Assembly: GCA_021323355.1 (NCBI GenBank)
Contig: JAJONK010000001.1
Location: 1 to 33,068, forward strand
Source of the DNA: Deltaproteobacteria bacterium
GTDB lineage: Bacteria; Desulfobacterota; Binatia; UBA9968
Reading direction: 5' to 3'
Length of the DNA: 33,068 nucleotides
Made by a program: the position numbers and the translations under genes. The notes below the pieces were generated by a model that did not search any database, had not been told where the DNA came from, and saw only the letters and a list, made by a program, of their open reading frames with translations. Below are positions 15,452-18,431 of this stretch, piece after piece. Position 1 is the first letter of the stretch, and the number at the start of each line of letters is the position of its first letter.

Positions 15452-15895
15452 TCAAGCAGTTTCTTCGGGTGGGCAAAGCATGACTTTGAGCGCCTTCATC
15501 AGCTCCTCCTCAATTCTCATGATCCTGCCCTGACCATCGACACAGGCGTGCTTGGTCGAGCCGGAGGCCAGCAGCGTGGCTTCAGCCTCGCGCATGATTC
15601 GGTAGGTGAATGTCAATGATGCGCGGCTGATCGAAGCTATTCGTGTCTCGATGACAATCAGATCATCGTAACGCGCTGGTCTGAAGTATCGGCATGACAG
15701 CTCCGCAACTGGAAAATGCATGCCCCGTCGCTCGATGGTTGCGTACGGAATTCCGCTTGCACGCAGAAACTCACCGCGGCCTCTCTCGAACCAGCGTAGG
15801 TAGTTGGCGTAGTAGACCACGCCCATTTGATCGGTATCACCATAGATGACTCGATAGGTTGTCACATTTAAATCGTTTCGTTTGCTCGAACTCAT
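15452..15895 (-). CDS. Acyl-CoA thioesterase, YbgC/FadM (4HBT hot-dog) family
   Basis: The product is 147 aa and carries the hallmark sequence YRVIYGDTDQMGVVYYANYLRWFERGRGEFLR. Confidence 0.9.
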   Translation of the reverse strand: MSSSKRNDLNVTTYRVIYGDTDQMGVVYYANYLRWFERGRGEFLRASGIPYATIERRGMHFPVAELSCRYFRPARYDDLIVIETRIASISRASLTFTYRIMREAEATLLASGSTKHACVDGQGRIMRIEEELMKALKVMLCPPEETA

Positions 15896-16044
15896 GCGCT
15901 CTCACTCGTATGTTGTTTTGGAGCTTTTCTCAACGCCAGAGTTCCCGACTCGCCTTGACAATCTGAAATGAAGTATGCTTTAAGTTCTACAAATTTTCGG
16001 GCGATCATATTCGTGAATTGCGGGTAAAGGTTCGGAGGAATGAA

Positions 16045-16512
16045 ATGAAGCGAACAACTGATTTCTTGACGTTATCAACCGGCTCGCTCCTGCTCGCTGC
16101 GGGTTTAATCGCGTGTTCATCTGTTCAGGAGCAAACGGCCGCACCCGCGCAAAAACCGACACCGAGCCAGGCCCAAGCTGTCGCCGAAGCAAAGCCGCCC
16201 GCAGAGGCAAAAGCCACAAAGGGCGAAACAAAACAAACCAAATCCAAAGCTGTCGAAGTTGAGGGTGTCATCAGCAGCGTCGGCCAGCGAACGATTACCT
16301 TCCAAGTGGAGCGCAAGGGAAAGGTTCGCGAGGAGGTGGTTGGAGTCGATGACAAAACGAATATCGAAAAAGCCGGCAGCAGAGTCAAATTAAAAGATTT
16401 GCAGCAAAGCGATAAAGCCTTGATCAACTATGAACCCGAAGCCTATACTCCGGCAACCGCCATCAAGGTGACTGGACAAGGTAAATTACAGAAGGTCGGT
16501 GGCGCCGACTAG
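16045..16512 (+). CDS. Hypothetical lipoprotein with an Ala/Pro/Lys-rich linker and a small C-terminal beta-rich domain
   Basis: The start is trimmed to ATG 16045, which is preceded by GGAGGA at 16034-16039. The signal peptide plus lipobox reads MKRTTDFLTLSTGSLLLAAGLIAC. A low-complexity linker follows (AAPAQKPTPSQAQAVAEAKPPAEAKATKGETKQTKSK). I recognise no family with confidence. Confidence 0.6.
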   Translation: MKRTTDFLTLSTGSLLLAAGLIACSSVQEQTAAPAQKPTPSQAQAVAEAKPPAEAKATKGETKQTKSKAVEVEGVISSVGQRTITFQVERKGKVREEVVGVDDKTNIEKAGSRVKLKDLQQSDKALINYEPEAYTPATAIKVTGQGKLQKVGGAD

Positions 16513-17399
16513 CTGCCATAGCGATTGCGGCGGTCGGCGCCGATTAAGTTTAGCTCGATACTGGTTTCGTTTCTTAAGACACGCAGACAGATGCGTTCCC
16601 CCGGTCGCTTCTTCCAAAGCTCCTGATAGAGTTGCCGCCGCGAGCGGATTTGCGTTTTCTCAACATCCAGAATGATGTCGCCCTCTTTAAGTCCCTGACG
16701 ATCAGCCGGGCTCCCTTCCGTCACTCCGCCGACAACCACATGGCCGGCGAGCAAGTGGGGATAGAAACCTAACCAAGGCTTTTGACTGACCAGGGAACGT
16801 TGTTTGAACGCCTGCTCCTGATCAAGGTAATAGCGGATCGGAATGGCCAATGAGAATTTTCCAACATCCGCAAGATTCAGGGAAACCACGCCCAACATCT
16901 CTGCTTTGAAATTTGCCAATGTGCCGCCGCCGAAGCCCGGATTGACGGCTGTCACTCTCACCGTTTGATCGAGCATGTATTCCCAATGGCCGTCGTACGG
17001 TTCCAGTGAAGTTACATAGCCTCCGCTCACTTTTCGTTCGTTGTTTCCGCTGCTCGCAACGATCAGGCTAGCCTGGCCAAGTGCGGCCGGTTCGGTTGCC
17101 GGTTTGAGGAAAGGCAGCCCGCGCGCAGGGATTTTTAAAAGCGCGAGTCCGCTATCGAGATCCTGTGTGACGATTTCACCCGGATACTCTTCTCCTTCGG
17201 CCACGGTGACGGTAATGGACGAAGCTCCGGTCACCACGTAATTAACCGTTAGAATGTACCCTTCCGGATCGACTACGGTTCCGGATCCGGTGCGCTCCGA
17301 CCCTAGGTTCCTGGTGGACGGATGATCTTCTGGGATCGACACGCGGATGTCTACTGTTGCCGGAATGATGGCATGGATCAAGCCGAGATGGCCGTTCAA
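16509..17399 (-). CDS. HtrA/DegP-like (S1C trypsin fold plus PDZ) protein with a degenerate catalytic triad and no signal peptide; predicted pseudoprotease
   Basis: The TTG start at 17399 has AGGAG 7 nt upstream. GSGTVVDPEGYILTVNYVV aligns to GSGFII..GYILTNxHVV. DLDSGLALLKI aligns to DPRSDIALIQI. AVNPGFGGGTL aligns to AINRGNSGGAL. A PDZ-like C-terminus is present (GHVVVGGVTEGSPADRQGLKEGDIILDV). Confidence 0.85.
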   Translation of the reverse strand: MNGHLGLIHAIIPATVDIRVSIPEDHPSTRNLGSERTGSGTVVDPEGYILTVNYVVTGASSITVTVAEGEEYPGEIVTQDLDSGLALLKIPARGLPFLKPATEPAALGQASLIVASSGNNERKVSGGYVTSLEPYDGHWEYMLDQTVRVTAVNPGFGGGTLANFKAEMLGVVSLNLADVGKFSLAIPIRYYLDQEQAFKQRSLVSQKPWLGFYPHLLAGHVVVGGVTEGSPADRQGLKEGDIILDVEKTQIRSRRQLYQELWKKRPGERICLRVLRNETSIELNLIGADRRNRYGS

Positions 17400-17468
17400 A
17401 GTCCTGCTCCTTATGCGACTTTACTCGCTGTTACCGCGAGCATGTCGCTAGTACTATTCTGCGCGGTT

Positions 17469-17747
17469 TCACGCCGCTTCTAAAGCTCTCCCGTGAATTC
17501 TATTGATGATTGCCAGGTTGTCAACGGTCATTAGCGCGTTGCTGATTTCCTTGTTCAGCACGTTGATCGCATCAAATTTTTCAATCAGCGCGATTTGGCA
17601 CCTCATAAGAAGGGTCAAGAGGAGCATAAAATCGTGAACCTCGGCGGCGGGTTCGAACAATCGATGGTCGAAGGGGACCCACGGCATCAATATCGTTTGG
17701 CGCCGAACAATGCCGTTAACGGCAAATAGCAGCGCTGCCTTTAGCAC
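17469..17747 (-). CDS. Hypothetical protein (92 aa), upstream of and co-directional with the pseudoprotease
   Basis: The only support is a track ORF with a GTG start and codon usage that looks coding. No recognisable motifs and no obvious RBS were found. Confidence 0.3.
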   Translation of the reverse strand: MLKAALLFAVNGIVRRQTILMPWVPFDHRLFEPAAEVHDFMLLLTLLMRCQIALIEKFDAINVLNKEISNALMTVDNLAIINRIHGRALEAA

Positions 17748-17833
17748 TGCGGGTTGAATTACTGATGAAGAGAGCCAGCGTCGGAAGTTACGGATAAATC
17801 ACAGACTTTTGTATGTTTGTAATACCGGCCAAC

Positions 17834-17861
17834 TTGACAATAGAGCAGAATCCAATATATT
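17834..17861 (+). promoter_or_regulatory. Putative sigma70-type promoter for the yceD-rpmF-plsX-fab operon
   Basis: A perfect -35 TTGACA (17834-17839) is followed by a 16 nt spacer and the -10 TATATT (17856-17861). The -10 lies 30 nt upstream of the yceD ATG, in a divergent intergenic region. Confidence 0.45.
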
Positions 17862-17891
17862 CAAATCGTCCGGCCAACCAGTTCTTTCGCT

Positions 17892-18431
17892 ATGAAAATT
17901 CCCGTCGACCAGATAACTCAGTCTCCCAAAGAAATCATGTTTTCAGAGAAGATTGAGGATTTAAATTCCTTTTTCGCGAATGAAAAGTATCGGGATTTTC
18001 ACTTTCCACCGGTGCTGGATGGAAGTCTGGTTTACTACAGATCGGGGCAGGAGCTTTTTTTCCAGGGATCTTTTGGCGGCAGATTCGAAGGCTGCTGCGG
18101 CCGATGTTTAGCTAATTATTCGTTTGACGTCGAAAAGTCGTTTGACATAGTGTTAGTTCCGGACCCGGCGCGCCCGGAGCGCAAAGTTGAGGAGTTGAGG
18201 CGAGAGGAGCTAGGTTTGAGTTACTACTCAAGCGATATTATAGAGCTAGCGCCGTTAATCGAAGAGCAGGTTCTACTGGCCTTGCCGACCCGCCCGCTGT
18301 GTCGTGAAGATTGTCGAGGGTTGTGTGGTGGTTGTGGAGTTAATCTCAATATTGAAGAGTGCGCCTGCGTTCCCGCTGCGCCGTCCGACTCGCGTCTTGC
18401 GATTTTTCGGACGCTCAAAATCAATCGTTAG
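17892..18431 (+). CDS. yceD: YceD family (DUF177) protein, large ribosomal RNA subunit accumulation protein
   Basis: The C-terminal Cys cluster CREDCRGLCGGCGVNLN..CAC is typical of DUF177. The gene sits in the conserved position directly upstream of rpmF and plsX. Confidence 0.9.
   Translation: MKIPVDQITQSPKEIMFSEKIEDLNSFFANEKYRDFHFPPVLDGSLVYYRSGQELFFQGSFGGRFEGCCGRCLANYSFDVEKSFDIVLVPDPARPERKVEELRREELGLSYYSSDIIELAPLIEEQVLLALPTRPLCREDCRGLCGGCGVNLNIEECACVPAAPSDSRLAIFRTLKINR

Follow-up and report, generated by a model that had tools for sequence, protein, structure and literature searches.

HtrA proteins are ATP-independent quality-control proteases of the bacterial envelope. In azurocidin/heparin-binding protein, haptoglobin and HGF, the trypsin fold is kept as a binding module after the loss of His and/or Ser; these are secreted, disulfide-bonded animal S1A proteins without a PDZ domain, and they are not closely related to the protein described here. 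The latter, hereafter the dead HtrA, is encoded on the minus strand at positions 16509-17399 of a 33,068-nucleotide stretch of DNA (the window) from contig JAJONK010000001.1 of assembly GCA_021323355.1, a Deltaproteobacteria bacterium of the GTDB lineage Desulfobacterota; Binatia; UBA9968. It shares the two-domain architecture and the predicted fold of HtrA, DegP, DegQ, DegS and AlgW (MEROPS S1C), but has Tyr, Gly and Gly at the positions of the catalytic His, Asp and Ser and lacks a signal peptide or membrane anchor.

Among described proteins, the nearest analogue is MamO of magnetotactic bacteria, an HtrA-family pseudoprotease that has been maintained by selection and now serves a non-catalytic purpose (PMC4794232). 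In MamO, the His and Asp of the triad remain and Thr stands in place of the Ser; the protein lacks a PDZ domain and carries a fused TauE transporter domain. At the magnetosome, it binds metal via the di-His pair H148/H263 and activates MamE (PMC4794232). In plant DEG7, the second protease domain has degenerated, with loss of the catalytic residues, and is reported to be used for protein-protein interaction or oligomerisation (PMC3194040). Inactive plant Deg paralogues are also known (PMC3194040, PMC3473262). The dead domain of DEG7 is eukaryotic and tandem-fused to an active one, whereas here it is the sole protease-like domain of a free-standing bacterial protein. Our literature search for leaderless bacterial dead HtrA proteins found no paper on them, and returned only MamO, plant DEG7 and the inactive plant Deg paralogues, and animal PRSS23. 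The leaderless clade marked by R36, Y54, G84 and a Trp-Glu-Tyr (WEY) motif is undescribed, and is itself a variant within the known HtrA-family pseudoproteases.

The features of the gene and its product are as follows.

16509-17399, minus strand: coding sequence of the leaderless dead HtrA-PDZ protein, 296 amino acids, TTG start, TAG stop
17407-17412, minus strand: Shine-Dalgarno sequence AAGGAG, 7 nucleotides 5' of the TTG, read from the sequence
17421-17423, minus strand: in-frame TAA, 7 codons 5' of the TTG start
17316-17324, minus strand: His26-Pro27-Ser28 motif, LA-loop region, specific to the leaderless clade
17292-17294, minus strand: Arg36 codon, two residues ahead of the GSG strand, family-specific, 100% conserved in 189 members
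17238-17240, minus strand: Tyr54 codon TAC (read 17240-17238), catalytic His position
17148-17150, minus strand: Gly84 codon GGA (read 17150-17148), catalytic Asp position
16977-16985, minus strand: Trp139-Glu140-Tyr141 motif, L3 (sensor) loop region, hallmark of the whole dead clade
16929-16931, minus strand: Gly157 codon GGC (read 16931-16929), nucleophile Ser position, within NPGFGGG of the L1/oxyanion-hole loop
16887-17288, minus strand: Trypsin_2 domain, residues 38-171, supported by Pfam, AlphaFold and Foldseek
16764-16781, minus strand: K207-P-W209-L-G211-F, PDZ carboxylate-binding loop, matching R-G-W-L-G-V of a DegP-like structure
16545-16772, minus strand: PDZ domain, residues 210-285, PDZ_2, aligned to HtrA PDZ1 and RseP PDZ structures

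Pfam assigns residues 38-171 to Trypsin_2 (PF13365; E 1.5e-17, 65 bits against a cut-off of 27.6) and residues 210-285 to PDZ_2 (PF13180; E 1.8e-13, 51 bits against a cut-off of 27). The full-length NCBIfam models remain below threshold, with 115.5 bits for TIGR02037 degP_htrA_DO (cut-off 416.2) and 86.8 bits for TIGR02038 DegS (cut-off 422.95), while the MamO model matches residues 33-120 alone, with 24.7 bits against a cut-off of 800. An AlphaFold2 model from a 43-sequence family alignment reached a predicted local distance difference test score (pLDDT) of 88.7 and a predicted template modelling (TM) score of 0.86. The top Foldseek matches to this model in the PDB are all HtrA proteins, with DegP, DegQ, AlgW and DegS as the best, together with MucD and HhoA (E 5e-24 to 1e-21, TM 0.6-0.69, identity 21-27%); DegP has the E of 5e-24. 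The HtrA fold is thus confidently predicted to be retained.

The preliminary description, which was made from the letters of the sequence, had proposed an HtrA/DegP-like PDZ protein with all three triad positions substituted, and both parts of this proposal hold. The codons of residues 54, 84 and 157 read TAC, GGA and GGC. In phmmer alignments to solved DegP-like and DegQ structures, 'iltvnYvv' falls on 'ILTNNHVV', 'dldsGlallki' on 'DPRSDVAVLKI' and 'npgfGgg' on 'NPGN(S/A)GG', which places Tyr54, Gly84 and Gly157 in the His, Asp and Ser columns, respectively; the Ser column reads Ala in those structures that are S-to-A crystal variants. The three residues stay in the triad columns in both the profile and the structure-based comparison. 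As judged from these alignments, the His-Asp-Ser triad is replaced by Tyr-Gly-Gly. The W139-E140-Y141 motif aligns by phmmer to the L3 sensor-loop segment of DegQ.

The gene begins with a TTG preceded at 7 nucleotides by AAGGAG (17412-17407), in line with the good ribosome-binding site noted in the preliminary description, which had also reported no signal peptide or transmembrane segment. The maximum Kyte-Doolittle value at the N-terminus in a 15-residue window is 1.39, as compared to 1.8-2.9 for those HtrA paralogues of this genome that are exported, and the scan detected no hydrophobic core in the N-terminus of the 296-residue protein. Direct reading of the seven codons between the TAA at 17423-17421 and the TTG revealed no start codon. 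An upstream in-frame start, which could have restored an ordinary HtrA N-terminus, therefore does not exist, and a 5' extension supplying a signal peptide is ruled out. The start codon occupies the homologous position in all of the 85 related loci. Among 80 full-length orthologues, a Shine-Dalgarno-like motif precedes it in 77, and the upstream frame is open for at most 15 codons in 37. The conserved start and the short upstream frames indicate that leaderlessness is a trait of the family and not an annotation artefact. Non-ATG starts prevail strongly in the same 80 loci (TTG 36, GTG 36, ATG 8), and this excess suggests deliberately low or tuned translation initiation.

The Tyr54, Gly84 and Gly157 residues are unchanged in 80/80 species-level full-length orthologues of 53-99% identity, which share 47 invariant columns with these three included, and dN/dS (the ratio of nonsynonymous to synonymous substitution rates) against six close orthologues is 0.05-0.15. 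Given the low dN/dS and the invariance of the triad columns, the substitutions are not the outcome of chance decay, and the gene encodes a functioning pseudoprotease rather than a broken protease, in support of the pseudoprotease interpretation in the preliminary description. We then compared 189 leaderless members, drawn from the window's order, other orders of the class, Methylomirabilota and other representatives. In this set R36, Y54, D80, W139, E140, R276 and several Gly and Pro residues are conserved in 100%, and H26, S28, G84, W209, G211, D241 and Y258 in at least 99%; in the L1 loop, G155 and G158 reach 100% and G157 96%. The column of R36 reads R in the representatives of the dead clade, as compared to G, S or a gap in the canonical HtrAs. 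The W139-E140 pair is common to the leaderless members and their exported relatives, while H26 and S28 are missing from the consensus of the exported dead relatives. In the PDZ carboxylate-binding loop, R/K207 is conserved in 97%, W209 in 99% and G211 in 99%; this conservation, together with the alignment to R-G-W-L-G-V, argues that C-terminal peptide binding is retained.

Three other residues were considered as relocated or substitute functional residues and rejected. His53, which appears as TVHYV in many relatives and could have been a shifted catalytic His, is Asn in the query, in 33/80 members of the order, in 15/17 of the class and in 79/79 of Methylomirabilota. Asp/Glu82, a candidate for a relocated acid, is acidic in the order and in Methylomirabilota, but is replaced by Ala, Thr or Arg elsewhere in the class. 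His138 of 'YDGHWEY' varies among H, Q, E and Y.

The leaderless clade can be defined by a length of about 300 amino acids, an MN(G/A) start, H-x-S in the LA region, R-x-GSG, LTV(N/H)Y, D-x-x-x-G-L-A-L, (Y/F)-(D/E)-x-x-WEY, NPG-x-GGG and an R-x-W-L-G PDZ loop, and the query carries every one of these motifs. From the S1C proteases, the dead HtrA has kept the GSG strand, the D80 position, the NPG..GG L1 loop and the PDZ carboxylate-binding loop. It differs from them, apart from the triad and the leader, in a minimal PDZ domain without an insertion after the carboxylate-binding loop, and in its own invariant R36 and W139-E140 and near-invariant H26-x-S28; the canonical HtrAs have no Arg at position 36. 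Like MamO, it combines a degenerate catalytic site with an HtrA-derived domain that selection has preserved. However, it is found in a context of yceD and type II fatty acid synthesis genes and not in a magnetosome island, Pfam detected no TauE domain in it, and it has no conserved His pair, as H26 is the only His that is conserved (at least 99% of the 189 members).

A scan of one genome per species yielded 130 relatives, almost all from metagenome-assembled genomes of 'Candidatus Binatia', some of them mislabelled Deltaproteobacteria. The closest is 99% identical, which assigns the window to a Binatia genome. A whole-genome search of the class revealed one copy in 181/201 Binatia genomes, in 155 of the 163 high-quality genomes (95%) and in 80/89 genera. 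The dead HtrA is therefore a near-universal single-copy gene of Binatia under strong purifying selection. In an even sample of the phylum, the orthologue occurred only in genomes of the same class and in one other genome. A profile search of 1.8 billion cluster representatives revealed more leaderless Tyr/Gly/Gly proteins of about 300 amino acids (e.g. P0123, P0125-P0130, P0135, P0137 and P0144), some of which are named Methylomirabilota or Rokubacteria by their sources, and a pattern scan detected 373 leaderless loci; nearly all of the best 80 carry a Methylomirabilota or Rokuibacteriota label. The Methylomirabilota members are a sister family.

When the top 150 cluster representatives were aligned to the family profile, about 60 displayed the R36/Y54/G84/W139-E140 signature; the canonical HtrAs among the 150 read N-H...D...N-S-G. 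Exported forms of 320-380 amino acids with signal peptides belong to the group of about 60. They are abundant in Alphaproteobacteria, namely in Kiloniellales, where the cultured Pelagibius marinus and P. litoralis have them. Rare exported representatives with R36 and the W-E signature are P0141, P0142 and P0154; in the first two, Gly stands in for the Asp while His and Ser are retained, and the third has the full triad together with R36 and E140. Their residue patterns suggest that they may be evolutionary intermediates and that Asp was lost first. The database labels for the dead HtrA, 'S1C family serine protease' or 'serine protease Do', are almost certainly wrong for thousands of sequences.

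We favour the interpretation, with a probability of roughly 0.6, that the dead HtrA is a cytoplasmic, non-proteolytic peptide-binding protein derived from HtrA/DegS, with one trypsin-fold and one PDZ domain. The absence of a leader points to the cytoplasmic location. The protein would act by binding and not by cutting. Its retained R/K-x-W-L-G-F loop in the PDZ domain may bind client proteins or peptides by their C-terminal tails, and the old active-site cleft may be kept as a groove that holds a peptide or an anion without cleaving it. This groove would comprise the glycine-rich L1 loop NPGFGGG, with Arg36 and Tyr54 at its centre and Trp139-Glu140-Tyr141 of L3 at its rim. By analogy with all HtrA proteins, a trimer is probably formed through the conserved N-terminal segment, and the assembly may serve as a holdase, an adaptor or a regulatory scaffold for one or more cytoplasmic clients. 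The presumed clustering of R36, Y54 and the WEY motif in space follows chymotrypsin-fold numbering, by which R36 would be a neighbour of the cleft's prime side. One point weighs against this interpretation: a new catalytic site might in principle be built from the near-invariant H26-x-S28 together with D80 or E140.

The near-universal single-copy dead form in Binatia, an uncultured class of abundant soil and groundwater bacteria, and its presence in Methylomirabilota imply an unrecognised cytoplasmic role of the HtrA scaffold. The family is a natural experiment in which a protease fold has been turned into a binding module. It offers a defined set of residues for mutagenesis (R36, Y54, W139, E140, H26, S28 and the PDZ loop), and its exported cousins have cultured hosts (Pelagibius) that are open to genetics. 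A bolder interpretation, which we regard as doubtful, is that these proteins are widespread cytoplasmic ATP-independent receptors of C-terminal tails, in the form of a trimeric clamp of PDZ domains and dead clefts, or else that they perform a new chemistry around H26, S28, R36 and Y54. Such a clamp might recognise specific C-termini, for example those of incomplete or tagged polypeptides, and either hold these clients or pass them to cytoplasmic proteases, so that the logic of the envelope HtrAs would have been moved into the cytoplasm.

Catalysis by a new site on the trypsin scaffold seems unlikely to us. The protein would then be a cryptic hydrolase or other catalyst that uses, for example, His26 and Ser28 with Asp80 or Glu140, or Tyr54 and Arg36 acting on a non-peptide substrate. 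Such a site would account for the conservation of H26 and S28 (99%, and specific to the leaderless clade) and of R36, Y54, D80 and E140 (100%). Genes for small-molecule hydrolases lie beside the dead HtrA gene in three lineages (4HBT type, dienelactone-hydrolase-like and AstE/AspA family), and only the Asp of the triad is replaced, by Gly, in the rare relatives P0141 and P0142. However, H26 and S28 reside in the LA-loop region and are missing from the exported relatives that share the rest of the signature, and the hydrolase neighbours are mutually unrelated and lineage-specific. In addition, the nucleophile is missing from the Ser195 position, and to our knowledge no chymotrypsin-fold enzyme works without one there.

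In a second alternative, which we consider quite improbable, the dead HtrA would be the non-catalytic partner of an active cytoplasmic HtrA, forming mixed trimers with a leaderless triad-intact paralogue or activating it allosterically, following the logic of MamO, which activates MamE (PMC4794232). The window's genome contains about nine further Trypsin_2 genes. Eight paralogue open reading frames were examined; six are full-length with a canonical His/Asp/Ser triad and two are partial fragments. Five of the six full-length paralogues have hydrophobic leaders, and the sixth, on contig C28 (G000:C28:6643-7050, L005, with a fragment on C345, L008), is leaderless, with a PDZ domain and without a signal peptide or membrane segment. 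In this assembly, the reading frame of the C28 paralogue seems to shift after about 220 residues, perhaps through an error of assembly or through real decay; intact versions of 340-355 amino acids are present in two relatives (L191:1084-2151, minus strand, and L193:1087-2109, minus strand). Judged by its sequence, this type of paralogue would be a cytoplasmic active HtrA, and its presence is what favours a partnership. Nevertheless, clear orthologues were found in only 3/6 related genomes, with the others giving generic DegP/Q-type matches of 500 amino acids, whereas the dead protein is near-universal; an obligatory partnership is therefore unlikely. Moreover, the dead and the active genes are never adjacent in the examined loci.

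The possibility that the dead HtrA is a ligand or metal sensor also has a low probability. Here, the cavity left by the Asp-to-Gly and Ser-to-Gly substitutions, lined by Tyr54, Arg36 and the Gly-rich loop, would bind a small anion, a cofactor or a metal, and the PDZ domain would relay the signal. Two side chains of the pocket are indeed gone while Arg and Tyr are strictly kept, and MamO demonstrates that the fold can be reused for metal binding. On the other hand, no conserved His or Cys cluster exists across the family, in which H4, H53, H138 and H220 vary, and we found no transporter, regulator or metabolic operon whose link to the gene holds across lineages. Finally, with a TTG start and no catalytic residue left, the gene might be suspected of being a pseudogene in decay, or of having a mis-called start behind which an ordinary exported HtrA is hidden, but both are refuted by the dN/dS of 0.05-0.15, the 47 invariant columns over 80 species, the occurrence in 95% of the high-quality genomes of the class, the TAA seven codons upstream, and the Shine-Dalgarno-like motif and start in 77/80 and 80/80 loci, respectively.

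In the window, the dead HtrA gene stands alone, divergent from yceD-rpmF-plsX-fabD-fabG-acpP. Its surroundings contain the following features.

15452-15895, minus strand: 4HBT-type thioesterase gene, downstream and on the same strand as the dead HtrA gene
16018-16512, plus strand: lipoprotein-like gene, 164 amino acids, lipobox LIAC, convergent; a homologue is at the same place in 46/80 order-level loci and absent elsewhere
17400-17891, strand not applicable: intergenic region between the dead HtrA gene and the divergent yceD; a radical SAM gene sits here in sister lineages

A CTAG palindrome at 16509-16512 provides the TAG stops of both convergent genes, the dead HtrA gene on the minus strand and the lipoprotein-like gene on the plus strand. 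Between 18690 and 21456 of the window, as well as in L009 and L011, plsX is followed directly by fabD and fabG, without an intervening fabH, and related loci have the same arrangement.

Within the order, a radical SAM gene of the TIGR01212 type (PF04055 Radical_SAM and PF16199 Radical_SAM_C) lies directly upstream in about 46-48/80 loci, where it overlaps the dead HtrA gene or is within about 10-60 base pairs of it (e.g. L009:7002-7988 and L011:6997-8004). The window and its closest relatives lack this gene, as do the deepest branch of the order, the other orders and Methylomirabilota. A search for its remnant in 17400-17900 returned nothing at E<=10 except for a 9-residue chance match. An obligatory operon with the radical SAM gene is ruled out, given its restriction to these order-level loci and the lack of a remnant in the window. 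The gap contains an open reading frame of 92 amino acids (17469-17747, minus strand), which is kept in three very close loci only and has no likeness to the radical SAM protein. The thioesterase gene is downstream in 55/80 order-level loci, where the order's deepest branch has it immediately beside the dead HtrA gene, and is found in 0/18 class-level loci outside the order and 0/80 Methylomirabilota loci. The thioesterase, yceD, plsX and lipoprotein genes were each rejected as functional partners, as their synteny is limited to the order.

In the loci from other orders of the class (L173-L188), the order-level neighbours are all absent, with a divergent pabB/pabC-like pair as the most frequent neighbour. 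In 12 of the 18 class-level loci, a divergent gene for a chorismate-binding PabB-like protein is located about 70 base pairs away, followed by a PabC-like class-IV aminotransferase gene. In Methylomirabilota (L093-L172, e.g. L096:3973-4863), the dead HtrA gene lies about 10 base pairs 3' of a same-strand hydrolase gene in 66/80 loci, and the product of this neighbour is an exported alpha/beta-hydrolase with dienelactone-hydrolase-like motifs (HGC..G and GWSQGG). At two alphaproteobacterial loci, the exported cousins follow a gene of the AstE/AspA family, and no sigma/anti-sigma linkage was seen there. No gene partner is kept across orders and phyla among the order, class, Methylomirabilota and alphaproteobacterial loci compared. 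Since the neighbours vary between orders and phyla, the client is probably not an operon partner. As a minor observation, small-molecule hydrolases recur as neighbours in three of these lineages, each of a different and unrelated kind.

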